DNA of 58,198 bases from Aulosira sp. ZfuVER01. Lineage in GTDB: Bacteria > Cyanobacteriota > Cyanobacteriia > Cyanobacteriales > Nostocaceae. The notes under the pieces were generated by a model that saw nothing but the letters and a program-made list of their open reading frames with translations, did no database searches and was not told the DNA's origin. This document shows positions 23,556-43,553 of this stretch, piece after piece (positions within the stretch are counted from its first letter, which is position 1; each line of letters begins with the position of its first letter). The position numbers were made by a program, and so were the translations under genes. Where the stretch lies: the NCBI GenBank assembly GCA_034530615.2, contig JAVRCV020000002.1, positions 1 to 58,198 of the forward strand, in the 5' to 3' direction.

Positions 23556-23879
23556 TTAGGCAACTTTGTACTCGTCCTGTATGATTACGCTTTGGCTGAA
23601 ACCTGTTTTTTCTAGAGTGTCTATTACTTGTTCTTGTCCACCAACAACATAAATATCGGCATCAGCACCCATCTTTTGTTTGGCGAAAATTAGTACTCGC
23701 AGCCCAGCACTGGCGATATATTCTAGGTCTTGGATGAACAATACCAGACGCTTAACTCCGGCTTTAGCTGCATTTTCCACTTCTACTCGGAAAATGGGCG
23801 CGGAACTTGCATCTAGTTCGCCAGTAAGAGTAATTTTAGCGGTATCGCCATCAATTTCAAGAGTTGCACTAAAAGCCAT
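23556..23879 (-). CDS. STAS anti-anti-sigma-type phosphoprotein (RsbV/SpoIIAA-like)
   Basis: GELDASSA, YIASAGLRVL phospho-Ser motif. Confidence 0.92.
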   Translation of the reverse strand: MAFSATLEIDGDTAKITLTGELDASSAPIFRVEVENAAKAGVKRLVLFIQDLEYIASAGLRVLIFAKQKMGADADIYVVGGQEQVIDTLEKTGFSQSVIIQDEYKVA

Positions 23880-23956: not shown

Positions 23957-26074
23957 TTATTTGCCTACGAGAATCACTACTGAGCGATCGCCTAGTAAAA
24001 TTCCCTGTTGAGTGCCCAGTACAGGTTCTGTTCCAGGTTCCCAGCTAGCTTCTGCTGGATTCGCGCCAGTATTTGCAAACACGTGCCACTTCATACCTGC
24101 TGGTGGTTGGGGAAGTTCAAACCAGTGAGCTTCCCAGTGCATATTCATGGCAACGTAAATATAGTTATCTTTGACTGTGCCACCTTTAGCGTGTTTGCCA
24201 CAAAGCATAAAGGCTAGGGTACGGCTATTGTCAGACCAGTCTGCATTCCAAGCTTTAGTACCGTGCCAGGTAATATCAGCATAGCCACTACCAACATAAT
24301 CTCTATTTTGGAAGTGCCAGTGATTTCTCAGTACAGGGTGTGCATTGCGGAAAGCAATACAGTGCTTAGCAAAGTTGAATAGATCGGAGTTTGACTTGAG
24401 TAAATTCCAATCCAACCAGCTGAGTTCGTTGTCGTGACAGTAGGTGTTGTTATTACCTTGCTGACTTCTGCCGACTTCATCGCCCATCAGCAGCATTGGT
24501 ATGCCTTGGCTCACTAGAAGCATGGCGATCGCATTTTTAATCTGCCGTTGGCGTAAGGCATTGATACCTGCATCCTCTGTCCAGCCTTCTGCACCACAGT
24601 TCCAACTATCGTTATCGTTGGTGCCGTCGTTGTTGTTTTCTCCGTTGGCTTCGTTATGCTTGCCGTTGTAGGAAACTAAGTCAGCTAGGGTAAAACCATC
24701 ATGGGCGGTGATGAAATTAATCGAGGTAGCAGGTGCCCTTCCTGCCCAAGCATAGAGATCTGGTGAGCCTTGCAGCCGTTGTGCCATATCTCCGACTCGC
24801 CCAGGTTCGCCTTTGAGGAACTTGCGAATACCATCGCGGTACTTACCATTCCACTCAGCCCAGCGACCAAAGGCGGGGAACGAGCCTACTTGGTACAAAC
24901 CGCCTGCATCCCAAGCTTCCGCAATCAATTTACATCTAGCGAGAATCGGGTCAAATGCTAAAGTTTCCAACAACGGTGGATTTGCTAGCGGTGCGCCCCA
25001 AGGGTCGCGACCGAGAATTGATGCCAAGTCAAAGCGGAAGCCGTCGATGTGATACTCTGCTGCCCAGTAGCGCAGACAGTCCAGCACAATATTCCGCACA
25101 ATTGGGTTATTACAATTGAGCGTGTTGCCACAACCACTGAAGTTAAAGTAGTAACCTTCAGGGGTAAGCATATAATATGTTTTATTGTCAATACCCCGAA
25201 AAGAAATCGTTGGCCCGTGTTCATTACCTTCCGCAGTATGGTTGAAGACCACATCTAAAATAACTTCAATGCCATTGGCATGGAGTTCTTTAACCAGTTG
25301 CTTCAACTCATCAACCTGCATCCCAAACTTGCCTGTGGCTGCATACCCCGCCTTGGGTGCAAAGAAACCAACAGTGCTATAGCCCCAGTAATTTAGTAAG
25401 GTTTCACCTGTCTGGGGATTGGGACGAGAATTTTCAAACTCGTCAAACTCATATACAGGCATGAGTTCGATGCAGTTTACACCCAACTCTTTGAGGTAAG
25501 GAATTTTCTCGCGAATCGCCGCAAAAGTTCCGGGATGCTTCACCCCTGAAGATGAATGGCGGGTAAAGCTGCGGACGTGCATTTCGTAAATAATCAAGTC
25601 TTCTGGCGGCAGTTCCAGCGGACGCTCTGATTCCCAGTCAAAGTCGTCAAAGGCGATCCGGGCGCGATGGTGGTAGATATCACTCCAATCTGGCGTGACT
25701 CCCCAAACATCCCGTCCGCCAATAATTTTGGCGTAGGGGTCTAAGAGAATTTTGCTCTTGTCAAACCAGTGGCCAGCCTTGGGGTCGAATGGGCCATCCA
25801 TGCGATAGCCATATTCGATTTCTTCGTAATCCAGGTCAAAAACCACCATGCAAAAAACATTCCCAATCCGAAACTCTTCAGGAAAAGGAATTTCTGCAAA
25901 CGGTTCGGGCTGATGTTTCTTAAACAGCACTAAAGAACAGGATTTAGCGTGACTAGAAAAGATGGAAAAGTTCACCCCTCTGGGAACCAGCGTGGCTCCA
26001 AAGGGGAAAGGTTTACCCCGACGCAGCTTAAAGTCGCCGTAGGTATGGGTGGGATTAACGTCGATGCGCTCCAT
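23957..26074 (-). CDS. glgX: Glycogen debranching enzyme/isoamylase (GH13)
   Basis: NYWGY, DVVFNHTAEG, DGFRFDLAS, AEAWD, TAHDGFTL, NNNTYCHD. Confidence 0.97.
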   Translation of the reverse strand: MERIDVNPTHTYGDFKLRRGKPFPFGATLVPRGVNFSIFSSHAKSCSLVLFKKHQPEPFAEIPFPEEFRIGNVFCMVVFDLDYEEIEYGYRMDGPFDPKAGHWFDKSKILLDPYAKIIGGRDVWGVTPDWSDIYHHRARIAFDDFDWESERPLELPPEDLIIYEMHVRSFTRHSSSGVKHPGTFAAIREKIPYLKELGVNCIELMPVYEFDEFENSRPNPQTGETLLNYWGYSTVGFFAPKAGYAATGKFGMQVDELKQLVKELHANGIEVILDVVFNHTAEGNEHGPTISFRGIDNKTYYMLTPEGYYFNFSGCGNTLNCNNPIVRNIVLDCLRYWAAEYHIDGFRFDLASILGRDPWGAPLANPPLLETLAFDPILARCKLIAEAWDAGGLYQVGSFPAFGRWAEWNGKYRDGIRKFLKGEPGRVGDMAQRLQGSPDLYAWAGRAPATSINFITAHDGFTLADLVSYNGKHNEANGENNNDGTNDNDSWNCGAEGWTEDAGINALRQRQIKNAIAMLLVSQGIPMLLMGDEVGRSQQGNNNTYCHDNELSWLDWNLLKSNSDLFNFAKHCIAFRNAHPVLRNHWHFQNRDYVGSGYADITWHGTKAWNADWSDNSRTLAFMLCGKHAKGGTVKDNYIYVAMNMHWEAHWFELPQPPAGMKWHVFANTGANPAEASWEPGTEPVLGTQQGILLGDRSVVILVGK

Positions 26075-26318: not shown

Positions 26319-26726
26319 TTAAGCAGGTAGAGCGTGAACCTTAAGCTGGAGAGCTTCTAAGCCCGATTCTACGGTGTCGCTCAGGCTGAAGAAGTTGAGA
26401 AACCCAGTAATCGACATCGTATCTTGAATTTCTGGGGCAACTCCTACCAACACCAGATTTCCATCTTGACCAGCAAACTGCCGATGTAGCAATAGCAATG
26501 TGCGTAAGCCAGCACTGGACATATAAGGCACATTGGTTAAATCCAGCAGCAATTTACTGTTTGGTTTAACCAATGGTAAAACTTGCGCTTGCACCTCAGG
26601 GGCAGTTTTGCCATCGACATCGCCATCTAGTTCCACTACAGTCACTTCTTCGTGTACTGCTGGAGGTGCATCGCCGTTTGCAGTGCTAAGTGCAGTTACT
26701 TGCAGTGTCTTGATAATAATCTCCAT
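26319..26726 (-). CDS. Second STAS phosphoprotein, with an N-terminal insertion of about 17 aa
   Basis: GDVDGKTA, YMSSAGLRTL; insertion TALSTANGDAPPAVHEE. Confidence 0.92.
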   Translation of the reverse strand: MEIIIKTLQVTALSTANGDAPPAVHEEVTVVELDGDVDGKTAPEVQAQVLPLVKPNSKLLLDLTNVPYMSSAGLRTLLLLHRQFAGQDGNLVLVGVAPEIQDTMSITGFLNFFSLSDTVESGLEALQLKVHALPA

Positions 26727-26746: not shown

Positions 26747-28573
26747 CTACGCAGTAGGGACAATTTGAACTTTGACTTTGACTTGCGCCTTGGTTTCTGG
26801 TAGTTTCACCGTCAAGCCGTTGGCGTCAAAATCGGTGTATGGTTGGTCATCGATCCAACAAGCACCAATCTTGATGCTACCAGGAGGCAAGATATCAGGC
26901 TGTACCCGCAGGATGTTGTCCTTAAATGCACCTGGTTGAGGCTTGAAGTAGAGGTCTAGTGGTTGCTTGGTAATTAGCAGATTAGTATAGACTACTGCCA
27001 AATAGCACAGTTCTGTTGAGTGGTAGGCACTCATGGAGTGAGAGCCTTTGAAGCGTTCGTTACCCAACAGGTAGGGTAAGCCGTTGGCTAGAACGTTGAA
27101 GTAAACTGCACCGTCATCATGATCCAAGAAGAAGGCATTGTAGAAAGCTGCGGCTTCATGAGCTTGACGTTTGTATTCTGGCTTATCTAAGATACCGTGC
27201 AGGATTAGGTAAGCAAGAATAGCTTGTTCTTGTTGCCACCAAGCTTTGCGATCGTGCCAAACAAAGCGATGCTGTTCTTCACCTTCACCGAGAACACGTT
27301 CAACTACATCGTACCAGCCGCCTCTTTGTTGGTCGCTTCCAACTTTAGGCATGAGGTAGCCAATTTTCTCAGCTAGTTGTACGTACTCATCTTTGGGCTT
27401 GAGGGAATTCATCCGCATCAAGTTCCAAGCAATTTTCAGGTTATGTCCGACAACGGCGCGGTTTTGTTGCCAACCCCATGTTTGGTCTTTGCTCCAGTCT
27501 TCAAAAAACTTCTCTTGCACAAAGGGGCTGTCGTCGTAGTCTGGGAAATATTTGGCGATCGTGTCAAAGGTATATTCTAGGAAGTCGGCGTATTTCTTCT
27601 CGCCTGTTGCTAGCCATAAATTGATCAGGTAGGCGGGCGCATGGTCGCCTACAGAGTTCCAGTTTTTGCGAGCGCAGTTCCGACCTAGAGATTCGGCACG
27701 AGGGTCGAGGGTAATCGGGTCAATATGGGAGAAATAGCCGCCGCCTTCTTTATCTAGGAAGAATTTATCGAAGAGATCGACAGTCATTTCCGCATCTTTG
27801 AGAATGCGGGGATCGCCTGTAATTCTATAGGTTTGAATGGGGCCAGCTAAGGCGTAAATCTGTTCGTAGGCGGGGATAGCGTCGTAGTCGTCACTAAACT
27901 CCGAGGTGAGCAGCTTTTGTTCGCGGCGTCCGGTAACTTTAATGCCGTGATACCAATAGATGAGGTTTTCATCGGGATCGTAGAAGCGCATGTGTTCGCG
28001 CAGATACTCTGTCCCTCTTTCGGCTGCTTCGAGGAAGCGGTCTTCGCCTGTTAACAGAAAAGCTGAAGCGAAACCATAAACCAGACGCGAAATCGTATCA
28101 GTTTCTTGCAAAAAGTCGTCGCGCTTTTTGCCACCGGCTAAGTGTAGATAAGTGCGGTATTCGTGGTAATCAATTTCGCGATCGGGATAGTGGAACTGCC
28201 ATCTCAGGTAACTGTCAGCAATCGAACGTATCTGCTTAACCCACCAATCTGGTTCTTCGTGGCGATAGACACCTGGTTTATCGCTAGGAAAAACTAAGGA
28301 TTTGGCTTCAAATTTGTAGTCATCTCCCTGAGGATAAAAGATACCGTAAACGAATACGTGCTGACCAGGTACTAGGAGTTTTTCAATTTCACCAGTGCAA
28401 TCTCTATAAGACTCTTCCAGGTTTTGCGCGATTCTGGCATAAACAGTCGGGGTGAGATATGCTCTATATTCCCGTTCATCTGAGGTTTTAATGCCAAAAG
28501 ACTTATCGCTAGAGTTAAAGTCAGTGACGTAACCAGTGATTGTGTCTGAGAAAGAGAAGCTGATTTTGTTCAT
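26747..28573 (-). CDS. AGE/cellobiose 2-epimerase superfamily protein with N- and C-terminal extensions
   Basis: SRLVYGFASA, VGHNLKIAW, WWQQEQA, KGSHSMSAYHSTEL motifs of the (alpha/alpha)6 epimerase fold. Confidence 0.85.
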   Translation of the reverse strand: MNKISFSFSDTITGYVTDFNSSDKSFGIKTSDEREYRAYLTPTVYARIAQNLEESYRDCTGEIEKLLVPGQHVFVYGIFYPQGDDYKFEAKSLVFPSDKPGVYRHEEPDWWVKQIRSIADSYLRWQFHYPDREIDYHEYRTYLHLAGGKKRDDFLQETDTISRLVYGFASAFLLTGEDRFLEAAERGTEYLREHMRFYDPDENLIYWYHGIKVTGRREQKLLTSEFSDDYDAIPAYEQIYALAGPIQTYRITGDPRILKDAEMTVDLFDKFFLDKEGGGYFSHIDPITLDPRAESLGRNCARKNWNSVGDHAPAYLINLWLATGEKKYADFLEYTFDTIAKYFPDYDDSPFVQEKFFEDWSKDQTWGWQQNRAVVGHNLKIAWNLMRMNSLKPKDEYVQLAEKIGYLMPKVGSDQQRGGWYDVVERVLGEGEEQHRFVWHDRKAWWQQEQAILAYLILHGILDKPEYKRQAHEAAAFYNAFFLDHDDGAVYFNVLANGLPYLLGNERFKGSHSMSAYHSTELCYLAVVYTNLLITKQPLDLYFKPQPGAFKDNILRVQPDILPPGSIKIGACWIDDQPYTDFDANGLTVKLPETKAQVKVKVQIVPTA

Positions 28574-29111: not shown

Positions 29112-30299
29112 ATGAACAAAAAATTATGGCAGCCGCCAAGATTACGGATTGGCGAAGATCGGGGAGAAGAAAGACGTGCTACCTGGCTGGAGTTGTTTTA
29201 CGATCTGATATTTGTGGTAGCGATCGCAGAATTAGCTCACAATCTCAGCAAAGATGTTTCTGTGATAGGGGTTTTGAGTTTTATTGCCCTATTTACACCA
29301 ATTTGGTCTTGTTGGTTAGGAGCAACTTTCTACGCCACGCTGTTTGATACGGATGATTTAAGCGATCGCTTATTAACCCTCCTGCAAATGACCTTGATTG
29401 CGGCTCTCGCAGTCAATGTGCATCACGGACTCAGTACCTCTGCTGTGAGTTTTGCTATTTCTTACATAGGCGCTCGCAGTATTCTCATTCTTCAATTTCT
29501 CATTGCCAGATATCATGTTCCAATAGCTCGCCCCCTACTCAATCGCTATATATTGGGCTTTAGTCTTGGTGCTAGTTTTTGGTTAATCTCGCTGTTTGTC
29601 CCAGCACCTTGGCGTTTTGTACTCTGGGCAATTGGGATGATTGTAGAATTTGTTGCGCCCTTAGGTACAGGTCGTTTTGCTACTCAAATCACACCAGATA
29701 TTTCTCATATGCCAGAACGACTGGGACTTTTTACCATGATCGTTTTGGGAGAGTCTGTTGCTGCTGTGGTGAGAGGTGTAGCTCAAAAAGAATGGATTAT
29801 TTCATCTACAATAGTTGCTCTTTTAGGCATGATCGTGGCTTTTAGCTTGTGGTGGCTTTACTTCGATAGCATCGATGGCTCACCACTAGAGACCATGAAA
29901 GAGGGTAGAATTAATATCTTTCTTACTTGGCTTTATTCTCACCTGCTCTTAGCTATGGGTTTGGCAGCAACAGGGGTAGGAGTTGAGCATCTAATTTTCA
30001 AAAGTGCAGTTAATGTTTTACCAGACAATGAACGCTTACTTTTGTGCGGTGCTGTGACACTGTGTTTAGCGATTTTAGCGGTAATTAATTTAACAACCTG
30101 TATTTTGGAAAAACAACGACAAGGCAAAATTTTGAGTGCTTATCGTTTAGGAGCAGGAGCTTTTGTGTTCTTCCTGGGGATTGCTGGTAAGAGTTTAGCT
30201 CCTGTAGCTTTAATTGCATTGGTTGCAGCTGCTTGTGCGATCGCAGTTGTTCTAGATTTGTTCGGTAAAAGCCGATATCAAATCATGTCTGAGGAGTAG
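29112..30299 (+). CDS. Low temperature requirement protein A (LtrA) family membrane protein
   Basis: ATWLELFYDLIFV, HMPERLGLFTMIVLGESV, WWLYFD. Confidence 0.92.
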   Translation: MNKKLWQPPRLRIGEDRGEERRATWLELFYDLIFVVAIAELAHNLSKDVSVIGVLSFIALFTPIWSCWLGATFYATLFDTDDLSDRLLTLLQMTLIAALAVNVHHGLSTSAVSFAISYIGARSILILQFLIARYHVPIARPLLNRYILGFSLGASFWLISLFVPAPWRFVLWAIGMIVEFVAPLGTGRFATQITPDISHMPERLGLFTMIVLGESVAAVVRGVAQKEWIISSTIVALLGMIVAFSLWWLYFDSIDGSPLETMKEGRINIFLTWLYSHLLLAMGLAATGVGVEHLIFKSAVNVLPDNERLLLCGAVTLCLAILAVINLTTCILEKQRQGKILSAYRLGAGAFVFFLGIAGKSLAPVALIALVAAACAIAVVLDLFGKSRYQIMSEE

Positions 30300-30344: not shown

Positions 30345-30980
30345 TCAAACAGGCTGAACAACTTCCCGATCGCGAGAGCTAGTTTTCTCAATTTCTTTGA
30401 CAAACTCTGCCATGAATTCGTCTACCACGCCCGGATGCTTGCCTGTAATTAAATTACCATCTATCACTAAATCAGCAGTTACATCGTTATCATAAACAAC
30501 GTCTGCGCCAGCATTTTCGACATCACAAATAATATTATGGGCACAGGTTACTTTCCGATCTTTCAGTAAATCTGGATCGGCACAGAAAAGCCACAAACTG
30601 TGGCAAATAGTCCCTAGTTTCACATTATCTGTTGCCATTGCTTTTCTCAAGAAAGCAACTGCTGGAGCTTGATTTTTTTGACCTTTTTTCACATTTACCT
30701 GATATCTCAGGCGATCCATTGCATAAGCTCCGATGCAAATGATGCCTTTATAATCAGCCGGGTCAATATCATTAACTTCGGTAGTAACTGTGACATGAAA
30801 TTCTATTTGGTCATTTTCGGGGTTAGAGCCGAAGTGTAGTTCTTTATTACCCCACAAATGAGAAATATATTCTACTTCATAACCATGTTCGGGGAAGTAC
30901 TCATTGAAGCGCCGATATTCTGTAGCATCAAAATGTTCTTCAATAAGTACACCTATTTTGCCTTTAATTGCTTTTGTCAT
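30345..30980 (-). CDS. DJ-1/PfpI family protein (glyoxalase III/deglycase-like)
   Basis: EEHFDATE, nucleophile ICHS, DGNLITG. Confidence 0.9.
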   Translation of the reverse strand: MTKAIKGKIGVLIEEHFDATEYRRFNEYFPEHGYEVEYISHLWGNKELHFGSNPENDQIEFHVTVTTEVNDIDPADYKGIICIGAYAMDRLRYQVNVKKGQKNQAPAVAFLRKAMATDNVKLGTICHSLWLFCADPDLLKDRKVTCAHNIICDVENAGADVVYDNDVTADLVIDGNLITGKHPGVVDEFMAEFVKEIEKTSSRDREVVQPV

Positions 30981-31099
30981 GAGGTGTTACCGATTATTTG
31001 TTGTTTTAATTTCTCATTGAAAGCAGAGGGAGTTTATTAGATTCTACATTAAACTCACCTCTGCTGAATTAGTCACAATTGGCTAATTCCAAGACCATT

Positions 31100-34000
31100 T
31101 TAAAATTTCAGATTCAACTGAGAGGGATCTGGATATACGCGCCATTCATAGATGCGATCGCCATCAAAGCGATAGATATCTGTACAAGGAACTTGAATAA
31201 AGCGCTTGTCAACTTTGTTGACATAATTCGCATCCATTTCCAGAATCACAGTGTTACCAACTTCCCATGTTCCTCTAGCATTATGGGTTGTCAGTTTCAG
31301 AACTTTGTAGATATTAACCAAAAAGTCTCGACAAGCTTCAGGGCCTACTACAGGGTCGTTAGCACCAACTTTGTAGAGTAAGTTGGGTGTGAAGAAGCTC
31401 ATGAATTCATCCCAATTTTCAGCGTGCAATGCTTCATACATTTTCCCAATAATTGTTAGCAAGGAACCGTTGCTAGCAGGTGCTTTCGCAGCTTGGGGTT
31501 GCACTTTTTCTGTTTGGAATACTGGACTAATGTCCATGTAAATTCTCAGTTCTTGGACTTTATCCCCCTTGAAGATGATAGTGTCACAACAAGGCAGTCG
31601 GAAAACTTTACCATCATGACGGATGTAGGTAACTTCCATTTCACAGATCACTGTGTCATCCTGTTCCCACATATGTTTGATGTGGTGGTAACATTGGGCA
31701 ACTGTGTTCAAGAAGTCAGTTGAACTTTCTCTAATTCCTTGAGGGCCATAAGCAACTGGGAAGTTACTAAATTGGTAGTGAGCATCTTCGGTGTAGAACT
31801 TGACAAAGTTTTCTACATTCATCGATTCGCCTGCTTCAAACATCCGTCTGACAATTTCAGACTTGGTTCCAGGACGTGTGAGTGACTGAGTCATAGTTTT
31901 GTCATCCTTGTTTGTGATATTTTCTACACTTTGTTTTAGTTGTGCGACCGCCAGACGGATATTTTCTGGTTTAGCTGTCTCAATAAATCCTTGTGCATCT
32001 TTGTGCTGTAGTGCACTTTCACTAACAGGTTGCAAATCAATTGTGAAAGTTACTATCGGTAAAGCACCAGGTTCTTGAGGTGGATACAGATAATTAATAA
32101 ACCGACCTGTAAATAGAGGGTGATCTACAAGATTAATCGTGAGACTTCCCGCTTGGCGATCGATGGTAACTCTTTGCTTCATCTCCATGCCGGGCATTTT
32201 GACTTCGCGCAGAACTCCATCGCTATAACGTTCTAAAATGGGAAACTTATCAGTGTAAGCTTGCTCCATCCAAACTTGCCAAATCTTCTCTACTGGAGCA
32301 TTAATAGTAGAACTATATGTTCCATACAAACGGTGGTTTGTATTGGCAGTGATGGCGGAAGTTGTCGGTGCGGAATTATTGTAAAACCAGTAGTTTGTGC
32401 CGTTAGCTTGGTTATATTCCTTTTGGGCAATGCTAAATCTTTCTTTAGCTTTCCTTCTAACTTGGTTAAATTCTAATTGTTCACCATTTGGACCTTTACA
32501 GTAGAATAAAGACCAACCGTCAAAATCGGCAATAAAGTCTACCTTGGCATATTTTAGAGGCGCATTTTTTCTCGCAGTTTCCGAATCAATATGAATAATT
32601 CGGTTAGCAACGACGTTAGTCAGTCCGCGACTTTGGCATTCATCTTCTAACATCTTGGCAAAGTCATTGATATCCACATCATCCTTTACATAAAAAGAAA
32701 GGTGTGGTGCGTTGACATAACCAATGCCTGAAGGTATCTTACCAATACAATTTGGTGCTTGAGAGTTTAATTTAGCATCTCTAAAATGGATGAGTTCAAC
32801 ACAAGTGTTACCAAAGGAAATAAATCTTACATCCAAGGCTTCTTGTGAGCCATCTCTAATATTAGGGACACCTATGGTTTTGGGATTAAGACCTTGCTTC
32901 AATGCTTCTAATTCTTCTTTTTGAAAAAGCAGATTGTGCAAGTCTTCACCAACAAATCCATCTCCACCAATTGCGACTTTTCCACCCAACACGTCAATGT
33001 AAAATTCTAGGGCTTTTGTCATATCATTAACGGTTATGCCTACGTGTTGCAAACCTTGGAGATAATGACCTAAACTGCTAGATTTTCCGTTGACCTGGCT
33101 AGGCATAAGAGATACTACGTCCTCTTTTAATTGATTGGTGGCTCCATTTTGAATCAGCGACGCTACTTGTCCGTTCATCAGAGATACTATGTCCTCTTTT
33201 AATTGATTAGTGGCTCCTACACTTTGGATAAGCGACGCTACCTTGGAACTGCGTTGACCAGCTAAGGTGATCTGACTGTTGTATACAAAGGTATAAGCCG
33301 TTCTTTCGGGAAATGGCTGAATTTGTTTGATATATCTAGCTGCATCTTGAGTTGCAGCTGCATACTCAGAAGAAGCAAAAAACTTTTCTCTTTCCAAATG
33401 ATTAGCAAAAGCAATTTCATAAGCTGCATGATATTGCTTGGCTTCTGGTTCGTAATGACTTACCCCAGCTGCATCGGGACGGGAATTATCTACTTCTTCA
33501 AATAGGTGCAAGCGCAACTTCAGTACTGCATCGCTACTGCTGACTTTGGGAGCAAAAGTCTCGCTCAGATAGCGACGGAATGCTTCTGTACTGACGCTAT
33601 CAGCTTTTTTGACTAAGACGTGAAATTTGATGGCTCCGACTTCGCCGTTGGGGTCGCCAGTGGGGATGCGGTCGATATATGTGATGGAATTGCCAGGGTT
33701 GGTGTTGTAACCGATGGCTTTACGGAACAAATTATGTTCGTCATCCATCAAAATAGCTGACGCTTTAAACCAGGTATTACGGTCAGCTTCACTTTCAAAA
33801 GTTAACTCTGCAATCCCATCAAAGTTATCTTCTGCATCCCATCTGTAATCCAACCCGGCGATTTCTGGCCACAACCCACCTTCGTTATGCGCTACATGAA
33901 ACTGCCAGTATTGATATTGTCCTGGTAGTCTGGCGCAGACTGGGCCGTGTACGTCTTTCCAATAATTATCAAAAAGCTCTAGGGAAATGGACTCCCGTTT

Positions 34001-34465
34001 CCACAGGAGTACATAAAAAGCTACTTTTCCTTGACGATCCCTTGCTGAATAATCAGCTTGGTTTGATTTTTCGGGCGCTGAAACCATTGCTGCTTTCCTT
34101 GGTATGTAATTGACATTGTCAAAAATCTGATTCAGGGCGGCGAAGCAAGGCGCGACCTTATTAAAGCCCGCATAAACGCATAAGAACAGCAGCAGTTCTT
34201 CAATTTCATCGCGGGTGGCTCCTTGTTTGAGAGCCATATTCACATGGGCGGCGAAGGGGTTTCCTGGACCTCTATGATCCTGATTGACTACATCAATAGC
34301 GATGGTAATCAGAGCCTTAGTTTTTTGGTCAATTAGTGGTAAACCCCAAGCTTCACCTGCTACCCGAATTACAAAGTCACCAAACTTGGGATTGATTTGT
34401 TTTAAATTCTTTTGCAGTTCTGGGTCATCGAGGACGGCATTTTTAACTGCTAACTCCAGTTTCAT
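31100..34465 (-). CDS. 1121-aa fusion: CMD-like, tandem EthD-like, VOC, SRPBCC/AtaL-like, two SnoaL/NTF2 domains
   Basis: CMD (GEAWGLPLIDQKTKALIT...GATRDEIEE); EthD (FDNYWKDVHGP, DGIAELTFES); VOC (QHVGITV...ELIHF...HLSF...EQLEF); SRPBCC (INAPVEKIW); SnoaL (FYTEDAHY...ELRIYMD and FFTPNLLY...EWRVYPD). Confidence 0.8.
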   Translation of the reverse strand: MKLELAVKNAVLDDPELQKNLKQINPKFGDFVIRVAGEAWGLPLIDQKTKALITIAIDVVNQDHRGPGNPFAAHVNMALKQGATRDEIEELLLFLCVYAGFNKVAPCFAALNQIFDNVNYIPRKAAMVSAPEKSNQADYSARDRQGKVAFYVLLWKRESISLELFDNYWKDVHGPVCARLPGQYQYWQFHVAHNEGGLWPEIAGLDYRWDAEDNFDGIAELTFESEADRNTWFKASAILMDDEHNLFRKAIGYNTNPGNSITYIDRIPTGDPNGEVGAIKFHVLVKKADSVSTEAFRRYLSETFAPKVSSSDAVLKLRLHLFEEVDNSRPDAAGVSHYEPEAKQYHAAYEIAFANHLEREKFFASSEYAAATQDAARYIKQIQPFPERTAYTFVYNSQITLAGQRSSKVASLIQSVGATNQLKEDIVSLMNGQVASLIQNGATNQLKEDVVSLMPSQVNGKSSSLGHYLQGLQHVGITVNDMTKALEFYIDVLGGKVAIGGDGFVGEDLHNLLFQKEELEALKQGLNPKTIGVPNIRDGSQEALDVRFISFGNTCVELIHFRDAKLNSQAPNCIGKIPSGIGYVNAPHLSFYVKDDVDINDFAKMLEDECQSRGLTNVVANRIIHIDSETARKNAPLKYAKVDFIADFDGWSLFYCKGPNGEQLEFNQVRRKAKERFSIAQKEYNQANGTNYWFYNNSAPTTSAITANTNHRLYGTYSSTINAPVEKIWQVWMEQAYTDKFPILERYSDGVLREVKMPGMEMKQRVTIDRQAGSLTINLVDHPLFTGRFINYLYPPQEPGALPIVTFTIDLQPVSESALQHKDAQGFIETAKPENIRLAVAQLKQSVENITNKDDKTMTQSLTRPGTKSEIVRRMFEAGESMNVENFVKFYTEDAHYQFSNFPVAYGPQGIRESSTDFLNTVAQCYHHIKHMWEQDDTVICEMEVTYIRHDGKVFRLPCCDTIIFKGDKVQELRIYMDISPVFQTEKVQPQAAKAPASNGSLLTIIGKMYEALHAENWDEFMSFFTPNLLYKVGANDPVVGPEACRDFLVNIYKVLKLTTHNARGTWEVGNTVILEMDANYVNKVDKRFIQVPCTDIYRFDGDRIYEWRVYPDPSQLNLKF
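33104..33241 (-). repeat. In-frame tandem duplication (about 72 nt) in the EthD-VOC linker
   Basis: VASLIQSVGATNQLKEDIVSLM followed by VASLIQNGATNQLKEDVVSLM. Confidence 0.85.
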
Positions 34466-35819
34466 CTCACGCGGTAGTGATCAATCTAATTAGTTCGGTA
34501 GGAGCATAAACATCACGGTAGAAAGTTAGTTGCTCTGTTTTCAGATAGCAAGCACCGCGATGACCGCGACGTACCCATGTCACATTACCTTTGGCCAGAG
34601 TTTCGTTGGTTTCGTCGTCCACACACTTCCACTCAAAGTAAGTATGCTCACCATAAAACATGACAATTGGCCAGCACATGGTAACGCCTGGTTGTGCAAT
34701 CAATGCCCACCAGTGCTTTTCTCTTTCTTTTTGTTGTTCTAAACCGCGATAGGGGCCGTCTTGACAGAAATAAACTAAGTCATCACGATATTCTCCAGTT
34801 AGGATATCGCCTCTTCCTTGTCTCAACGCCTCACAATGAGTAGGCCACCACTCTCTGTTTTCTCTTTCAATTTGTTCGAGGGTGTAATAGGGGCCAATTT
34901 CGGGCAACTTTGATTCTTTCATTGCCACAATTTTTTCTGCATCCTCGATCAGTTTCTTGGCTACATAAGAGCTAACAAGTCCTGGACGAGAATAGTCCGC
35001 CGACAAACCTTCGTAATAATTGGTGCGCTTTTTCGTTGGTTGTGGCTTGCTTTGGGCGGCTTGCGCAGCAGAAGAAGTATGACCGTTGGTTTGTGGGGTG
35101 TAGGGATTGTAATTGAGCATGAGAGATTCTATATCCTCCTTAAGTTGATTGACTGCGCCAATTTCTGTAATCAGTTCTGCTACCGAGGAACTACGCTGAC
35201 CAGCTAAGGTCATTTGAGAGTTATATACAAAGGTATAAGCCGTTCTTTCGGGAAATGGCTGAATTTGTTTGATATATTTAGCAGCATCTTGAGTTGCCGC
35301 TGCATACTCCCAAGAAGCAAAAAACTTTTCTCTTTCCAGATGATTGGCGAAAGCAATTTCATAAGCCGCATGATATTGCTTGGCTTCTGGTTCGTAATGA
35401 CTTACCCCAGCTGCATCAGGACGAGAATTATCTACTTCTTCAAATAGGTGCAAGCGCAACTTCAGTACTGCATCGCTACTGCTGACTTTGGGAGCAAAAG
35501 TCTCGCTCAGATAGCGACGGAATGCTTCTGTACTGACGCTATCAGCTTTTTTGACTAAGACGTGAAATTTGATGGCTCCGACTTCGCCGTTGGGGTCGCC
35601 AGTGGGGATGCGGTCGATATATGTGATGGAATTGCCAGGGTTGGTGTTGTAACCGATGGCTTTACGGAACAAATTATGTTCGTCATCCATCAAAATAGCT
35701 GACGCTTTAAACCAGGTATTACGGTCAGCTTCACTTTCAAAAGTTAACTCTGCAATCCCATCAAAGTTATCTTCTGCATCCCATCTGTAATCCAACCCGG
35801 CGATTTCTGGCCACAACCC
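33483..35819. repeat. 395-bp identical direct repeat (33483-33877 = 35425-35819) within about 800-bp paralogous EthD regions
   Basis: Base-by-base comparison at offset 1942 showed no mismatch in the core; the flanks show scattered differences. Confidence 0.9.
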
Positions 35820-36029
35820 GCCTTCGTTGTGCGCTACATGAAACTGCCAGTATTGATATTGTCCTGGTAGTCTAGCGCAGACTGGGCCATGTACATCTCT
35901 CCAATAGTTATCAAAAATCTCTAAGGAGATTCCTTGTCGTTTCCACAAGAGTACGTAGAAGGCTACTTTTCCTTTGTGATCCCGTGCTGAATAATCAACT
36001 TTTGTTGCCTTGTTGATTGTTGAAACCAT
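34467..36029 (-). CDS. EthD-like domains fused to a C-terminal NTF2-like domain
   Basis: The first ~300 aa are nearly identical to the EthD part of the downstream fusion. The C-terminal ~190 aa (EYRDDLVYFCQDG...YFEWKC) look NTF2/SnoaL-like. The stop is 1 nt before the next ATG. Confidence 0.75.
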   Translation of the reverse strand: MVSTINKATKVDYSARDHKGKVAFYVLLWKRQGISLEIFDNYWRDVHGPVCARLPGQYQYWQFHVAHNEGGLWPEIAGLDYRWDAEDNFDGIAELTFESEADRNTWFKASAILMDDEHNLFRKAIGYNTNPGNSITYIDRIPTGDPNGEVGAIKFHVLVKKADSVSTEAFRRYLSETFAPKVSSSDAVLKLRLHLFEEVDNSRPDAAGVSHYEPEAKQYHAAYEIAFANHLEREKFFASWEYAAATQDAAKYIKQIQPFPERTAYTFVYNSQMTLAGQRSSSVAELITEIGAVNQLKEDIESLMLNYNPYTPQTNGHTSSAAQAAQSKPQPTKKRTNYYEGLSADYSRPGLVSSYVAKKLIEDAEKIVAMKESKLPEIGPYYTLEQIERENREWWPTHCEALRQGRGDILTGEYRDDLVYFCQDGPYRGLEQQKEREKHWWALIAQPGVTMCWPIVMFYGEHTYFEWKCVDDETNETLAKGNVTWVRRGHRGACYLKTEQLTFYRDVYAPTELIRLITTA

Positions 36030-36596: not shown

Positions 36597-36944
36597 TTAG
36601 GATGGTGTATCCAGTATTTCGTTTAGTACGCCAAAGCAGCCAGCTACCTTATTGAAACCTGCGTAAACACACACAAACAATAGCAGCTCTTCAATCTCCT
36701 CACGAGTTGCACCTTGCTTGAGCGCCATATTGACATGAGCGCCAAAAGGATTACCCGGGCCAACCTGATCCTGATTGACTGCATCAATAGCGATCGTAAT
36801 CAGAGCCTTAGTTTTTTGGTCAATTAATGGCAAACCCCAAGCTTCACCTGCTACCCTGGTCACAAAGTCGCCAAACTTGGGATTGATTTGTTTTAAACCC
36901 TCTTGAAGTTCTATATCATCTAAAACCGCATTTTTGTATTTCAT
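36597..36944 (-). CDS. Carboxymuconolactone decarboxylase (CMD/AhpD-like) family protein
   Basis: Close paralog of the N-terminus of the 1121-aa fusion; HVNMALKQGATREEIEE; no CxxC. Confidence 0.88.
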   Translation of the reverse strand: MKYKNAVLDDIELQEGLKQINPKFGDFVTRVAGEAWGLPLIDQKTKALITIAIDAVNQDQVGPGNPFGAHVNMALKQGATREEIEELLLFVCVYAGFNKVAGCFGVLNEILDTPS

Positions 36945-37419: not shown

Positions 37420-37525
37420 AGACTTAAGATTTACTTTATAAATTAGCATTGAACCTATTTTGGCAAATTAGAAGACTTAAGATTTACTTTATAAATTAGC
37501 ATTGAACCTATTTTGGCAAATTAGA
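37420..37525. repeat. Perfect 53-bp tandem duplication
   Basis: AGACTTAAGATTTACTTTATAAATTAGCATTGAACCTATTTTGGCAAATTAGA twice (37420-37472 and 37473-37525). Confidence 0.95.
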
Positions 37526-39177: not shown

Positions 39178-42100
39178 ATGGCTAATCCCACATTAGAGAA
39201 TGCATACGTTATTGGTAAAAGTAATTTTGATAGTTGGAGTCAAGCTTTTCCCAATGACACAGCAGGTTACTTAAAAGTTTTACCTCATCCTAACCAGACC
39301 ATTGCTTTTAAAGACCCTTTTATAGATTGGCAAAAAGATAACCAAAATTATAAAAATGGTCAGTTTAGTGCCACGAATGCACAGGGTACTTACTATTCAA
39401 GTTGGGGTCCATCTAAAGAACTCAAAGTTACTCTGAAAATGTCAGAGCTGACCCAGACTCAAATTGATGGGTTAGGGATTGTTCAAAAAGGAAATGGGGT
39501 AATTGAATGGTTAAATAACGAAGCAACTCCCTATGACCTTTTGCGAGCGTATAACAGTCTAATTCCTGGGCCAATGCTGATTACAGAGCCAGGAGACACG
39601 CTCAAGATTACACTGGTCAATGACTTAACCGATCCCACTAACTTACATACTCATGGGCTGCACGTCTCAGCTAAAGGAGAAGGGGATAACGTTCTTGTTA
39701 GCGTTAAGCCTGGTGAATCGCGAGAAATAAATATACCCATCCCCGACAATCATTTTATAGGACTTGACTGGTATCATCCTCACCTGCATGGAGAAACAGC
39801 CGATCAAGTGGGTTCAGGATTAGGTGCGCTTTTGTCCGTTAACGCACCTTATAATCTTCCCGATCTTGATAAATTTAATCCAGTCACAAGCCCAATATAT
39901 ACATTCGCAATCAATACACTTGGACTTCAAGAAGTACTTAGAAGTCCGAGTCCGACTGACCCGCTTAATCAAAGTACAGATGCAAATGTAAAAGTGCCTG
40001 CGGGTAGTCCCCTACAAATCTTTGGGCAGGATAGTAATGGCCAGAATATTTATCAACTTTCGGATGCGCCTTTTGAAGGTTACAACGCCAAGCCGATTTT
40101 CTACAATCCTGCCAAGCCAACAGGAGATGCACCGCAGACGCTTGAATATGGTGGTGGTGGTCTAGCAGAACCAGTAGAAAATGTTATTCACACTGTCAAT
40201 GGACAATACAACCCAACTTTAGAACTTACAACTAATCAATGGGATTTGTTTTCATTCGCCAATATGACCACCAATGCATTTCATATATTGCAATTGGTGT
40301 ATGACGATGGGACACAACTAATTCCCCAAGAAGTTAATTTGGTGGGTATTGATGGTGATGCTTCTGGTGTCGTAGATGTTGTTAGAAGGCAAGTAACAGA
40401 TTTTCCAGTTTTAAATCCTGGTTCTCGGGTAGCTGTTCAACACTTATTTGATAAACCAGGTACATACTACTTTATTTCTAACCCAACGGAAGAAATTGAG
40501 GATAAACAGTATGTACCGACTTTAATCCAAGGTAAGAAGGGATTTAGTGATGGTCACTTAATTTGGGGACCTCAAGTTTTAGCGACAGTCAAAGTTACAG
40601 GAAATCCAGTCGATCCTAATACGAATCCGCAGGCACCATTCCCTCAAGCTTATGACATCCTTACTCAACAAAGTAAAAAAATTGATGACCTGATAAATGG
40701 ACCAGTCGATCGGGAAAGGCAGTTTATCTGGGACGCAAATGTAGGTGGGGCGTTAGTATCTGGTAGGGTTCCCAAAGATACAGATGTCTCAACTTTCCAA
40801 GGAACTTACACAATCAACGGTAGGTATTTCTCTTCTAGCGAACCTGCTAATATTCCTCCGCTAGCTATGCCGATGTTGGGCACTACAGAAATCTGGAATG
40901 TGCTCAATAGATCTGGATTGCCCAGTGCCTCGTTACCACAAGCCACGCCTCCAAATATTCCTTTATCAGAATGGCATCCATTTCACATTCACCAGAATGA
41001 TTTTACCGTCCTATCTATTAATGGCATAGATGTTAAAGACATTAATGATAATTATCTTTCTGGGGTTTTGAGCGATACGATTGCTCTACCGCCTGCCTAT
41101 ATTAAAGGCACTGCCACAAAAGATAATCCCTACGGTCAACCATTCAGTTACAATCCTGCAAATCCTGGTGATGTCGCTAATGCTCAGGCATCAGAAGTCA
41201 AAATCTTAATGCACTTTGAGGATTTCCCTGGTAGCTATGTAAATCACTGTCACATTCTCTTCCATGAAGATGCAGGAATGATGATGGTTCTCAGACCTAT
41301 CCTGAATACAAAAGAGACTTGGTTAGGTTTGAGTTCAGATGATACCAGCGGACAGGTAGACTTATCTAGAGGTAATAATCCTAGTGCGGCAGGTATTAGC
41401 CTGACACCTTATGGTACTGCCTTTAATAAAGGTGTAGATGTCGCAATTGCAGATGTTAATTACAAAAGTAAGGATGGAGAAAATAAAAATGTAACGGATA
41501 ACGTTACTGATGTCATCACCATCCAAAAATCTTTGGATAAGCCTACTGATAAATTCAAAGTTAAAGTATTTGATGGGGCGACATTAATTCAAAAGCAAGA
41601 ATCCCAAACTAAAATCGATGGTTTAGACCCATCATCTCTGCTAACAGAAATCAATCCTTTCCAAAATATTGCTCCCTCAACTAATCAAATTGCCTCGGTA
41701 GCCTCTGGTGATATTGACGGTGACGGCTTCTCAGATATAGTTGTGGGTTTAGGGGGAGGAATCGCACCCATAATTGAGATTTATAGCGGTCAAGATTACC
41801 AGCTGAAAGCTCGTATAGCCCCATTTCACCATGAAACCTTCACAGGTAAAATCAACCTAGCAGTTGGTGATGTGAATGGAGACAACTATGATGACATCAT
41901 TGTTGGTGAAGGTAGTGGTGGACGTGGATTAGTGGAATTATACGATGGTAGAAAGCTGAATGAAACAGCGACCTTATCAGAGACTCCCAAAGACACAGCA
42001 CATCATACAGCGCTGCTATCTCAAGACTTCCAACCCTATGGAACCAGCTACACAGGAGAGGTAGATGTGACATCTGGTTATATTCTCCAAAGACCAGATG

Positions 42101-43476
42101 AACCAAATGATGCCACTACCCAAACTAATAATGCCAACATTACAACCCTTGCCAAGGGCCCCGTACCTCAAGGTCAAGAGCAAATTCAGGTTTATACATT
42201 TCTCGGAGGAGATCATGTTCATGACTCTACGACAACCGATCCAATGGCGGAGCAACTTCGTAAGGAAGTCTCTTTAACTCCTACTGGTAACACGCAAGAG
42301 ATTTCTGGAACCTTCGCAGATCTTCCTGGTTTACCTAAAGGTGAGCCTGTTCTCTATACCCGTAAGCAGAACGGAGATTATGAGATAATTCATTTGGGAG
42401 ATCAAAATAAACCTGAATCCACAGCAATTGCGGCAAGCACCACAACTTTCACACTGAAGAATGTTAACAAAGACATCTTTATTATCAACAGTAGTGGTGG
42501 CGGCAATCCCAAACTTAAGGTCAAACTTACAGGGCGCAATTCCAATCTAGTAAATGAACTTGGAGTATGCGTTGTTGATGATGATAAAGGTACGATTGAC
42601 GGTATTGCCCCAGGTGCAGCAGGTTACATCCAAGCGGCGTTAAGGCGATCGCAAATTATTTTCTCAGCTATTGCCAATAACCCCAATGGTTTCGATAGCA
42701 AGAATCTGACAAGCTTACTCAAATTTAACTCTGGTGCTAACTTGAAATTTTTCTTAGTCAGAAATAGCACCATAGAAACTGTACTGGCTGGGGGCGCTTC
42801 TAGCACAGATGTAATATTTGCAGATGCTTCGACACAAAAAATAACAGACTTGGGCACTGATGGCTTCTCCCTCGGTTGGAAGGTTAATAGTAGCAGTACT
42901 GAGTTTAACGATCTGGTGGTGAATATTCAATCTTCAAATGACTATTTACCTCTGGGTACAGGGCTACAAGGAAAGCCAGAAGGAGAACAATTTGATTTTC
43001 GTGGTGTGACGCAACTCATCAAAGCTGAGTTTGTAGTCAATAGAGAAGCAGCTTTCAATAACTATATCGGCTTCTATAAGACAGCTGATGAGAATGGTGG
43101 TATTGACACTAACGGTGATGGTAAAGCAGATATCCTCCCAGGACAAGCTGGCTATACTCAAGCAGCTATTAACCAAAGGATTTCGGACATTAACCTCTCA
43201 GTTAGTAACCAAGGTACGGCAAAATTTACAGCAAATTTCCAGGCAGGTGGTATCGTCGTGCCATTTATTGTGATCAATGAAAAACTAGACGCCCTTTTGG
43301 ATGCAAATACAACTAACGATCCTGCCGTTTACTTCCCATTCTTAGGAGCTAACTCAGATAAGGTAGATCATATTCGGATGTTAGGAAATAACATCATTGG
43401 CTTTGAAGATCTACCTAATGGTGGTGATAAGGATTATAACGATGTCATTGTCAAAGTAAATTTGAGTCTGGCATAG
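39178..43476 (+). CDS. Multicopper oxidase fused to FG-GAP-like repeats and a C-terminal DUF4114-type region
   Basis: All four Cu motifs (NLHTHG, WYHPHLHG, HPFHIH, HCHILFHEDAGM); GDIDGDGFSDIVVG and GDVNGDNYDDIIVG; C-terminal GFEDLPNGGDKDYNDVIV. RBS AAGGAG upstream. Confidence 0.92.
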   Translation: MANPTLENAYVIGKSNFDSWSQAFPNDTAGYLKVLPHPNQTIAFKDPFIDWQKDNQNYKNGQFSATNAQGTYYSSWGPSKELKVTLKMSELTQTQIDGLGIVQKGNGVIEWLNNEATPYDLLRAYNSLIPGPMLITEPGDTLKITLVNDLTDPTNLHTHGLHVSAKGEGDNVLVSVKPGESREINIPIPDNHFIGLDWYHPHLHGETADQVGSGLGALLSVNAPYNLPDLDKFNPVTSPIYTFAINTLGLQEVLRSPSPTDPLNQSTDANVKVPAGSPLQIFGQDSNGQNIYQLSDAPFEGYNAKPIFYNPAKPTGDAPQTLEYGGGGLAEPVENVIHTVNGQYNPTLELTTNQWDLFSFANMTTNAFHILQLVYDDGTQLIPQEVNLVGIDGDASGVVDVVRRQVTDFPVLNPGSRVAVQHLFDKPGTYYFISNPTEEIEDKQYVPTLIQGKKGFSDGHLIWGPQVLATVKVTGNPVDPNTNPQAPFPQAYDILTQQSKKIDDLINGPVDRERQFIWDANVGGALVSGRVPKDTDVSTFQGTYTINGRYFSSSEPANIPPLAMPMLGTTEIWNVLNRSGLPSASLPQATPPNIPLSEWHPFHIHQNDFTVLSINGIDVKDINDNYLSGVLSDTIALPPAYIKGTATKDNPYGQPFSYNPANPGDVANAQASEVKILMHFEDFPGSYVNHCHILFHEDAGMMMVLRPILNTKETWLGLSSDDTSGQVDLSRGNNPSAAGISLTPYGTAFNKGVDVAIADVNYKSKDGENKNVTDNVTDVITIQKSLDKPTDKFKVKVFDGATLIQKQESQTKIDGLDPSSLLTEINPFQNIAPSTNQIASVASGDIDGDGFSDIVVGLGGGIAPIIEIYSGQDYQLKARIAPFHHETFTGKINLAVGDVNGDNYDDIIVGEGSGGRGLVELYDGRKLNETATLSETPKDTAHHTALLSQDFQPYGTSYTGEVDVTSGYILQRPDEPNDATTQTNNANITTLAKGPVPQGQEQIQVYTFLGGDHVHDSTTTDPMAEQLRKEVSLTPTGNTQEISGTFADLPGLPKGEPVLYTRKQNGDYEIIHLGDQNKPESTAIAASTTTFTLKNVNKDIFIINSSGGGNPKLKVKLTGRNSNLVNELGVCVVDDDKGTIDGIAPGAAGYIQAALRRSQIIFSAIANNPNGFDSKNLTSLLKFNSGANLKFFLVRNSTIETVLAGGASSTDVIFADASTQKITDLGTDGFSLGWKVNSSSTEFNDLVVNIQSSNDYLPLGTGLQGKPEGEQFDFRGVTQLIKAEFVVNREAAFNNYIGFYKTADENGGIDTNGDGKADILPGQAGYTQAAINQRISDINLSVSNQGTAKFTANFQAGGIVVPFIVINEKLDALLDANTTNDPAVYFPFLGANSDKVDHIRMLGNNIIGFEDLPNGGDKDYNDVIVKVNLSLA

Positions 43477-43515
43477 TTCTAGAGGGTCATTTGACACGTT
43501 GTTAGCTCAAAAAGT

Positions 43516-43553
43516 CTCAATATGATGCAAATCCAATTTTGCATCATATTGAG
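43516..43553. terminator. 16-bp perfect stem-loop after the oxidase gene
   Basis: CTCAATATGATGCAAA-tccaat-TTTGCATCATATTGAG. Confidence 0.6.

Follow-up and report, generated by a model that had tools for sequence, protein, structure and literature searches.

What is a chain of seven small-enzyme domains for, and to which system does it belong? The question is raised by a window of 58,198 nucleotides (positions 1 to 58,198 of contig JAVRCV020000002.1 of the cyanobacterium Aulosira sp. ZfuVER01), in which a single open reading frame (ORF) encodes such a fusion. The fusion forms the module of accessory enzymes in an icfG-type operon, a membership that went unrecognised in an earlier reading made from the sequence alone (the sequence-only reading). 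Pfam and NCBIfam annotation of the window genes, compared with the annotations given in the available passages of published papers, recovers the row of an icfG-type operon with the upstream CMD gene included. Downstream of the fusion and on the same strand follow genes for DJ-1, an AGE-like enzyme, STAS, GlgX, STAS, a GAF-SpoIIE phosphatase and an RsbW-type kinase. In the order of transcription, the cassette comprises:

36597-36944, minus strand: stand-alone CMD gene, 115 aa, 81.5% identical in DNA to the CMD part of the fusion.
34467-36029, minus strand: upstream gene EthD-EthD-X, 520 aa, X being a highly conserved SnoaL-like domain of ~190 aa.
31100-34465, minus strand: fusion ORF, 1121 aa, CMD-EthD-EthD-VOC-SRPBCC(AtaL-like)-SnoaL-SnoaL (ORF list, Pfam, model, structural alignment).
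30345-30980, minus strand: DJ-1/PfpI-family gene; E14, C126 and H127 invariant in 56/56 cassette copies.
29112-30299, plus strand (opposite strand): LtrA-family membrane protein within the cassette (Pfam).
26747-28573, minus strand: AGE-like (alpha/alpha)6 sugar isomerase/epimerase, 608 aa.
26319-26726, minus strand: STAS 1 (Slr1856 position), SSAG motif (Pfam).
23957-26074, minus strand: GlgX-type GH13 (Slr1857/GlgX2 position; TIGR02100).
23556-23879, minus strand: STAS 2 (Slr1859 position; Pfam).
21886-23370, minus strand: GAF-SpoIIE (PP2C) phosphatase, IcfG position (Pfam).
21370-21822, minus strand: RsbW/SpoIIAB-type kinase, Slr1861 position (Pfam).

The likeness to the Synechocystis icfG operon is one of published annotations; X is presumably Slr1852, an assignment made from gene order. 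In the passages available, the row of Synechocystis sp. PCC 6803 is annotated as the CMD protein Slr1853 (PMC3479031), Slr1854 at the stress-protein/DJ-1 position (PMC3726282), the AGE-like Slr1855 (PMC8670252) and then STAS, isoamylase, STAS, the IcfG phosphatase and a kinase (PMC12329169). Furthermore, the slr1857 forward primer printed in one paper encodes the N-terminus of that protein, the first five residues of which match the window GlgX (PMC4911114). Slr1852, Slr1854 and Slr1859 are mentioned in the relevant passages merely as regulated or co-purifying proteins (PMC5714215, PMC12454622, PMC12232666). The STAS proteins carry SSAG and ASAG motifs, and phosphorylation of STAS by the kinase and its dephosphorylation by PP2C are activities established for Synechocystis only, as cited in a passage of PMC12329169.

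The fusion is a real gene and not an assembly artefact, since the same architecture recurs in 34 of 120 homologue clusters. A search for full-length homologues gave 121 clusters, 120 of them listed, and the counts given here are among those listed. The domain string of the fusion is exact in 33 of the 34, with one more that shares the query's short linker repeat, and the architecture persists down to about 43% identity. In all, 21 different domain strings occur among the 120, with EthD-2 in 119, EthD-1 in 117, SnoaL-1 in 114, VOC in 101, SnoaL-2 in 79, CMD in 68 and SRPBCC in 63. Most rows are nameless, and every organism name shown is cyanobacterial. Seven-domain frames of 1122-1215 aa were also found in 7 other genomes among 61 related ones, 3 of the 7 being 2-contig assemblies. 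A search for longer fusions found no homologue of 1963-5000 aa, which is weak evidence.

The sequence-only reading had described one uninterrupted ORF of 1121 aa, and the only stop codon is indeed the terminal one. Stops or frameshifts at the junctions in raw reads were what it named as a refutation; in Logan contigs, all boundaries between unlike folds are spanned, with 0 differences and 0 gaps. These contigs cover 30900-33311 and 33902-34334 and break solely within the duplicated EthD domains, where depth is roughly twice as high. They come from two root-metagenome runs, which are not independent because they belong to one study and possibly hold the same strain. Compared with its orthologues in genomes G003 and G006, the fusion shows synonymous and replacement codon changes in ratios of 155:48 and 159:54. 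Two RNA runs hold contigs of relatives, among them a 1386-nt piece, ~93% alike, that spans the EthD-VOC-SRPBCC junctions, although DNA carry-over is possible.

The module is tied to the AGE-like core. Across the 61 related genomes, for which a strong match means E 1e-49 or better, the fusion was matched in 25 at E 0.001 and strongly in 19. X is present in exactly the 19 genomes with strong fusion-domain matches. The AGE-like gene occurs in 32 of the 61, all 19 included, and a strong fusion match was found in none of the other 29. Similarly, a phylum-wide draw yielded the EthD pair in 7 of 200 other genomes (2 of them also among the 61), always at ≤10 kb from an AGE-like gene.

The AGE-like gene itself was matched in at least 597 of 600 GTDB genome stretches examined. 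The best 80 of these (at least 597) matching stretches, here called the 80 AGE loci, span many phyla, and their neighbours within 10 kb include GlgX (75), STAS (73), RsbW (58), DJ-1 (57) and SpoIIE (42). An alternative module of HchA/ThDP/GMC/short VOC (VOCa) accompanies 45 of the loci and fusion-module domains 17; no locus has both, and 18 have neither in the stretch examined. On a 93-row AGE tree, built like the VOC tree below from near-full-length rows only and with 20 rows labelled by hand from gene maps, the fusion module changes state 14 times, at least 11 of them forced, so a single core has repeatedly exchanged its modules. SnoaL and VOC proteins occur in both modules, and EthD proteins often do. 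Of the 13 AGE-positive genomes without the fusion module, 9 were examined: 4 have DJ-1 with a short VOC and 5 have HchA with ThDP, 3 of these 5 loci also carrying a distant EthD. Plasmid copies in Deinococcus, Streptomyces, Gemmobacter and Runella hold the other (HchA/ThDP) module, and the Streptomyces and Runella cassettes are flanked by glycogen or maltose genes. In loci L131-L133, all from the same genus, a third accessory set precedes the AGE-like gene:

L131-L133: NifU-like, molybdopterin-dehydrogenase FAD subunit, zinc alcohol dehydrogenase, DJ-1, short VOC, TMEM175.

Domains that are fused in the window are separate genes elsewhere. Beside the same core, genomes G011 and G012 encode CMD, VOC, several SnoaL, the EthD pair and X as separate genes in another order, and on a Gloeothece plasmid (locus L041) CMD, X and the EthD pair likewise lie in genes of their own. 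The sequence-only reading of a Rosetta-stone fusion therefore holds, the same domains being separate adjoining genes in these three relatives; its 'sequential steps' remain an inference. The split clusters have another gene order, so domain order need not equal reaction order. Fused and split modules adjoin AGE cores that are 94-98% identical to each other. Turnover is also evident within the chain: one homologue (P0244) has EthD-CMD in reverse order, another (P0069) has an inserted flavin mononucleotide (FMN) reductase, and on a tree of 116 VOC domains the presence of SRPBCC changes 17 times, at least 8 of them forced. The domains thus belong together while their fusion is optional and fluid, which favours tethering and disfavours a fixed channel.

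A single base separates the stop codon of EthD-EthD-X from the ATG of the fusion. Of 35 distinct X-stop contexts, 12 show the same spacing between the stop of X and the ATG of a CMD-starting gene; TGA, TAA and TAG are all represented. Loci L066 and L141 show a minimal order X-CMD-DJ-1-AGE. The one-base spacing probably reflects translational coupling that goes back to a gene pair X-CMD. The shortness of the spacer and the occurrence of all three stop codons led to the rejection of read-through from X into the fusion. Because profile comparison of X with the SnoaL domains of the fusion gave no link (Probab <1), the SnoaL-like label of X comes from an Atlas feature search.

The upstream gene and the fusion are further joined by an 823-bp duplicate, 94.5% alike, that contains a perfectly identical tract:

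33483-33877 = 35425-35819, minus strand: identical tract of 395 bp inside the 823-bp duplicate.

Over this tract the window copies differ from those of G003 at 43-44 sites and from those of G006 at 29-31, and the two copies within G003 differ from each other at 2 sites and those within G006 at 6. The longest identical EthD tracts measure 395 bp in the window, 503 bp in G003, 247 bp in G013 and 164 bp in G006; the G030 pair was left out of the tract comparison, its motif not having been found. A single clade of all 16 fusion-borne EthD pairs was rejected (p-AU, from the approximately unbiased test, 1.5e-56), with the rows of L049 left out as identical to those of L147. It appears from these comparisons that neighbouring EthD copies have been homogenised within lineages, in a pattern of gene conversion. 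Repeated re-duplication could also be the source of this pattern, and the tract identities are to be read with the caveat that assemblers can smooth repeats.

All seven domain calls of the sequence-only reading stand, six by Pfam and SRPBCC by fold and homologues. Each domain of the fusion is an uncharacterised subfamily with conserved polar residues:

34112-34465, minus strand: aa 1-118, CMD domain, PcaC-like fold without CxxC.
33200-34060, minus strand: aa 136-422, tandem EthD pair (Pfam, fold match 5f9p).
32384-33076, minus strand: aa 464-694, single-chain VOC domain with inserts; metal-ligand candidates H474/E557/H588/E665.
31907-32338, minus strand: aa 710-853, SRPBCC/AtaL-like domain, the least conserved, in 63/120 homologues.
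31508-31870, minus strand: aa 866-986, SnoaL/NTF2 domain 1, LEH-like fold.
31103-31468, minus strand: aa 1000-1121, SnoaL/NTF2 domain 2.

Pfam matches above cut-off in the fusion are CMD (26-112), EthD twice, Glyoxalase/VOC (471-607) and SnoaL_2 twice. The protein is soluble, its most hydrophobic 19-mer (Kyte–Doolittle 1.67) lying within a CMD helix. An AlphaFold2 model from a 101-row alignment has a mean predicted local distance difference test score (pLDDT) of 77.4 and a predicted template modelling score (pTM) of 0.39. It resembles beads on a string without confident rigid architecture: pLDDT falls below 50 at the linkers 119-135, 423-463, 695-709, 854-865 and 987-999, which are 12-41 residues long. 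The EthD-VOC linker (33104-33245) holds an internal repeat of ~24 residues, a duplicated EthD helix end with 86% DNA identity. Whole-model fold searches were dominated by the SnoaL domains and barely probed the VOC and CMD folds.

The CMD domain belongs to PF02627 (45.3 bits against a cut-off of 23), and its best PDB matches are the CMD proteins 2q0t, 4g9q and 2af7. It is not an AhpD, the CxxC peroxidase motif being present in 0 of 68 homologous CMD domains, and with the PcaC equivalog TIGR02425 it scores 36.9 bits against a cut-off of 155.7. The EthD pair belongs to PF07110 (51.3 against 22 bits); with TIGR02118 (cut-off 30.5) the fusion scores 27.0 and the upstream gene 33.4. Its residues Y168, W169, H173 and D242 are kept in 93-100% of 76 distant relatives, H173 in 100%. 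Residues 139-407 align to the anthrone oxidase-like barrel 5f9p (Z 14.8, root-mean-square deviation (rmsd) 3.7, 216 aligned), and in profile comparison the two EthD halves align to each other at Probab 96. A PDB profile search with the pair (63-row profile) gave nothing under E 0.4, and its profile was matched by 610 representatives. Among EthD-pair homologues, P0247 and P0249 have long N-terminal extensions that, by reading of the sequence, resemble plastid transit peptides, and others are fused to peptidoglycan-binding or cupin domains.

The VOC domain joins its superfamily through a Pfam match and four candidate metal ligands. These are the H/E/H/E set that the sequence-only reading had picked out, and all four are conserved in homologues: H474, E557 and H588 in 97/97 aligned rows having a residue, and E665 in at least 90%. 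The NCBIfam lactoylglutathione-lyase model is absent among the fusion matches listed at E 0.01. Against the PDB, VOC matches cover the first strand-helix only (FosB and methylmalonyl-CoA epimerase), and the only glyoxalase I-type match is a 19-residue stretch at E 0.12. For the SRPBCC part, Pfam gave no match within the fusion protein itself; homologues carry AtaL PF08982 and PF10604 matches, and model residues 711-860 superpose on the aromatase/cyclase ZhuI (3tfz; Z 14.4, rmsd 3.0, 146 aligned), a helix-grip fold. SnoaL-1 (866-985) aligns to limonene-1,2-epoxide hydrolase (LEH) 5aif with Z 19.2, rmsd 1.5 and 120 aligned residues. Of the LEH catalytic residues Y53, N55, R99, D101 and D132, Y53 is kept, N55 aligns to F and D132 to I, and R99 falls in a gap; the LEH catalytic set is absent. 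SnoaL-2 (998-1120) aligns to TerC 6d34 (Z 17.0, rmsd 2.0, 122 aligned) and to SnoaL-1 by profile comparison (Probab 99.9). An iota-carbonic anhydrase was dropped as a candidate, its Foldseek match running through the tandem NTF2 domains only (TM about 0.19 of target).

The AGE-like model (pLDDT 86.8, pTM 0.90) is nearest in fold to mannose isomerase (Z 30.9), to cellobiose 2-epimerases (Z 30.0) and to a glucose 2-epimerase. Residues H377 and H518, presumably the AGE catalytic pair, are invariant in 51 rows, and Lys380 and Gln450 align to Glu in solved close relatives of the AGE family. A canonical housekeeping AGE is encoded separately, on contig C79. Beyond its barrel the AGE-like protein has additional beta domains at both ends (residues 1-95 and 540-608), which the fold search barely probed. 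The GlgX residues D349, E386 and D459 are invariant in 61/61 copies, and the window GlgX is the genome's only match above the TIGR02100 cut-off. In seven loci (L024, L027, L033, L039, L096, L114 and L115) a STAS of the second type, that of the Slr1859 position, is joined to the C-terminus of the AGE-like enzyme. In the four of these loci that are cyanobacterial, a receiver-thioredoxin reductase and a cyclic nucleotide (cNMP) histidine kinase replace RsbW/SpoIIE. These fusions hint that the phospho-switch may touch the AGE-like enzyme.

The sequence-only reading had suggested that the substrate may be sugar-derived, since it saw no polyketide synthase (PKS) or nonribosomal peptide synthetase (NRPS) in the window, and the AGE-like, GlgX-like and OprB porin neighbours agree with a sugar-linked context. 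Five short PKS/NRPS motifs were not found in the window, in a scan that left ORF 54717-55928 outside; that ORF is beta-ketoacyl synthase-like by its N-terminus and is not seen in gene maps of related cassette loci. Megasynthases are also absent from the commonest neighbour families of the 80 AGE loci, which speaks against a PKS/NRPS tailoring role. The porin lies in a divergent arm of the same island:

39178-46348, plus strand: multicopper oxidase (39178-43476), ABM protein (43606-43998) and SLH-OprB porin (44510-46348).

The divergent-arm genes are this genome's best matches to genes inside relatives' cassettes (porin 48-72% in 4/6 queries, ABM 43-71%, oxidase ~50%). The AT-rich intergenic region between cassette and arm (about 30% GC) contains an exact 53-bp tandem duplication at 37420-37525. 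Beyond the arm, a 120-bp inverted repeat (46379-46498 and 50150-50269, 92.5%) flanks a 1209-aa ORF at 46377-50006. Rfam gave no match in 21000-47000, and promoter-like sites are no more frequent than chance (27 against 27.4).

It is proposed, with a probability of roughly 0.45, that a reactive carbonyl or lactone derived from sugar is made by the core and is then turned into a small ring compound by the tethered fusion domains, through isomerisation, dehydration, cyclisation and decarboxylation. The content of domains, the linkage to the core and the swapping of modules are observed; each reaction is read from fold chemistry which, the EthD decarboxylase excepted, is general knowledge. The GlgX2-like GH13 would free or rearrange an alpha-glucoside, and the AGE-like barrel would then shift protons at C1/C2 of the reducing end; with Lys380 and Gln450 in place of Glu it may eliminate, giving a deoxy-osone (a dicarbonyl). 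By way of enediolates, DJ-1 and the metal-binding VOC could isomerise the deoxy-osone to a lactone or hydroxy acid. This product would be dehydrated, tautomerised or cyclised to a small furanone-, pyranone- or cyclopentenone-type compound by the EthD pair, SRPBCC and the SnoaL domains, of which the fusion has two and the upstream gene one more, X; CMD and/or EthD would remove CO2. Fusion would give fixed stoichiometry and proximity but no tunnel. A multivalent cluster is a further probable result, since the folds of CMD, EthD and SnoaL commonly form oligomers. Gating of the pathway is probably the part played by the STAS/kinase/phosphatase switch.

Several points weigh against this route. Its substrate and product are inferred, and none is established for any domain. 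The linkage counts are patterns and not p-values, because kin are not independent. Module exclusivity is not absolute, as L041 has a ThDP gene near CMD/X/EthD, and it is weakened by the incompleteness of many of the 80 AGE loci. Distant relatives of the EthD pair occur in unrelated contexts (Roseomonas and Burkholderia plasmids), and this genome itself holds partial module copies away from the core, each near a large regulator-like ORF, the two ORFs being similar:

G000:C49:27024-28664: VOC-SnoaL-SnoaL, 546 aa.
G000:C80:88093-89646: EthD-EthD-X, 517 aa, with the conserved DG before IAEL altered.

As to the sugar supply, Synechocystis GlgX2 (Slr1857) had no debranching activity in vitro and its deletion no phenotype, according to a preprint (bioRxiv 10.1101/2022.11.21.517384), so 'glycogen in' is not established. 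Correspondingly, the passage in PMC4911114 names slr0237, not slr1857, as active on pullulan. In addition, a passage of PMC12329169 gives the kinase of the Synechocystis operon a role as an anti-SigC factor, and the switch may therefore act on transcription rather than on these enzymes.

Other explanations of the chain were weighed against the same evidence. The domains may form a parallel damage-control hub, in which enzymes that work separately to clear reactive carbonyls and electrophiles (methylglyoxal, deoxy-osones, enones) are co-regulated in a stress/carbon-status operon and fused for co-expression only. This is unlikely, if still worth taking seriously: DJ-1 keeps its Glu/Cys/His intact, the VOC has a glyoxalase-type H/E/H/E site, Slr1854 is listed in PMC3726282 as a butanol-induced general stress protein, domains are gained and lost freely, and the neighbours in relatives include FMN reductases, an old-yellow-enzyme-type oxidoreductase, short-chain dehydrogenases/reductases and a peroxiredoxin-like protein. 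Strict dependence on the AGE core (19/19; 7/7) and either/or modules (0/80 loci with both), however, are better explained by alternative routes for a single product of the core than by detoxifiers that add to one another; moreover, the AhpD CxxC is missing (0/68 CMD domains) and no lactoylglutathione-lyase model is listed for the chain. Catabolism of an imported compound (a plant or host glycoside, an anhydro-sugar or an aromatic lactone), with porin uptake, opening by oxidase and glycosidase and beta-ketoadipate-like funnelling to central metabolism, is improbable. It would suit the OprB-type porin and multicopper oxidase that travel with the cassette, the PcaC-like CMD, the alpha/beta hydrolases, 4-oxalocrotonate tautomerase (4-OT)-like tautomerase and muconolactone isomerase-family gene near some copies, and the root metagenomes (3 runs, one study) that are the best public holders of window DNA. 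Yet the PcaC model is missed by a wide margin (36.9 against 155.7), no ring-cleavage dioxygenase or ABC transporter is among the commonest neighbour families of the 80 loci, and the invariant partners are alpha-glucan-type enzymes.

The remaining alternatives concern the chain itself. The sequence-only reading had suggested channelling of unstable intermediates, and a true multienzyme whose domains dock in a fixed order and hand over such an intermediate would explain why domain order is identical in all 120 listed homologues, in a search that favours colinear proteins, and why the EthD-VOC junction persists in 100/120. That suggestion is not supported by the model (pTM 0.39, with linkers of 12-41 residues at low confidence), the 21 domain strings, the reversed EthD-CMD of P0244, the repeated loss or gain of SRPBCC and the split clusters with their different gene order, in which fusion is not obligatory; channelling is accordingly very doubtful. 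That genes were joined in assembly or annotation across the 823-bp repeat, or by stops lost in a decaying operon, is scarcely credible. The ORF does contain the 395-bp perfect repeat, and among the listed contigs of the runs none spans the whole gene, but the architecture recurs in 34/120 clusters (to ~43% identity) and in 2-contig genomes, every inter-fold junction is bridged without differences, and synonymous changes predominate.

The tethered, sequential route can be placed in a wider proposal, which is conceivable although the odds lean against it in so full a form. By this proposal, icfG-type operons encode an undescribed PKS/NRPS-free pathway under phospho-switch control, from an alpha-glucan-derived sugar to a small reactive or signalling molecule. 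A constant GlgX2/AGE-like/DJ-1 core would make one intermediate that interchangeable modules finish differently; the seven-domain chain would be the cyanobacterial module, matched to its neighbour by gene conversion, and STAS would gate the AGE-like enzyme directly. If a new sugar-derived metabolite results, it would represent a biosynthetic class, spread across many phyla, that searches for PKS/NRPS cores miss. The fusion shows which orphan domains belong together, and many cyanobacteria carry its module, whole or in pieces. Once the operon is viewed as a core to which exchangeable modules attach, what the icfG enzymes do becomes a matter for a defined reconstitution, the fusion alone not revealing the chemistry. 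The chain further offers a natural example of how domains accrete while adjacent genes go on being homogenised.

The icfG operon is known and is concerned with carbon regulation, and the seven-domain fusion is a variant of it, the sequences of which are already in public databases under single-domain names. A literature search, for which most subscription journals were out of reach, found no paper on the fusion architecture or the cassette chemistry, but only mentions of Synechocystis icfG or general papers. Among known enzymes, glyoxalase I and methylmalonyl-CoA epimerase have an H/E/H/E-type ligand set like that of the fusion VOC, which differs from these isomerases as an insert-bearing subfamily of ~230 aa. 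Lsd19, MonBI-MonBII, LEH and TerC are the top Foldseek and VIA matches and have similar tandem NTF2-like domains; the fusion differs from them at 10-20% identity, in the loss of LEH N55, R99 and D132, and in having no polyether PKS context. PcaC gamma-carboxymuconolactone decarboxylase and the PcaCD fusions share a CMD fold without CxxC, but the fusion lies far under both cut-offs and joins CMD to EthD, not to an enol-lactonase. The EthD proteins of fungal polyketide clusters, labelled putative decarboxylases in a passage of PMC4591646, and 5F9P share the dimeric alpha-beta barrel as a tandem pair; the fusion pair differs in having no PDB sequence match under E 0.4 and no polyketide context. 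The closest system is the icfG operon of Synechocystis sp. PCC 6803 (slr1852-slr1862), which, by published annotations, has the same row of families. The available descriptions of that operon are without an EthD, VOC, SRPBCC or SnoaL fusion, whereas in the window the small-enzyme end is expanded to 11 domains spread over three genes, a single chain holding seven.

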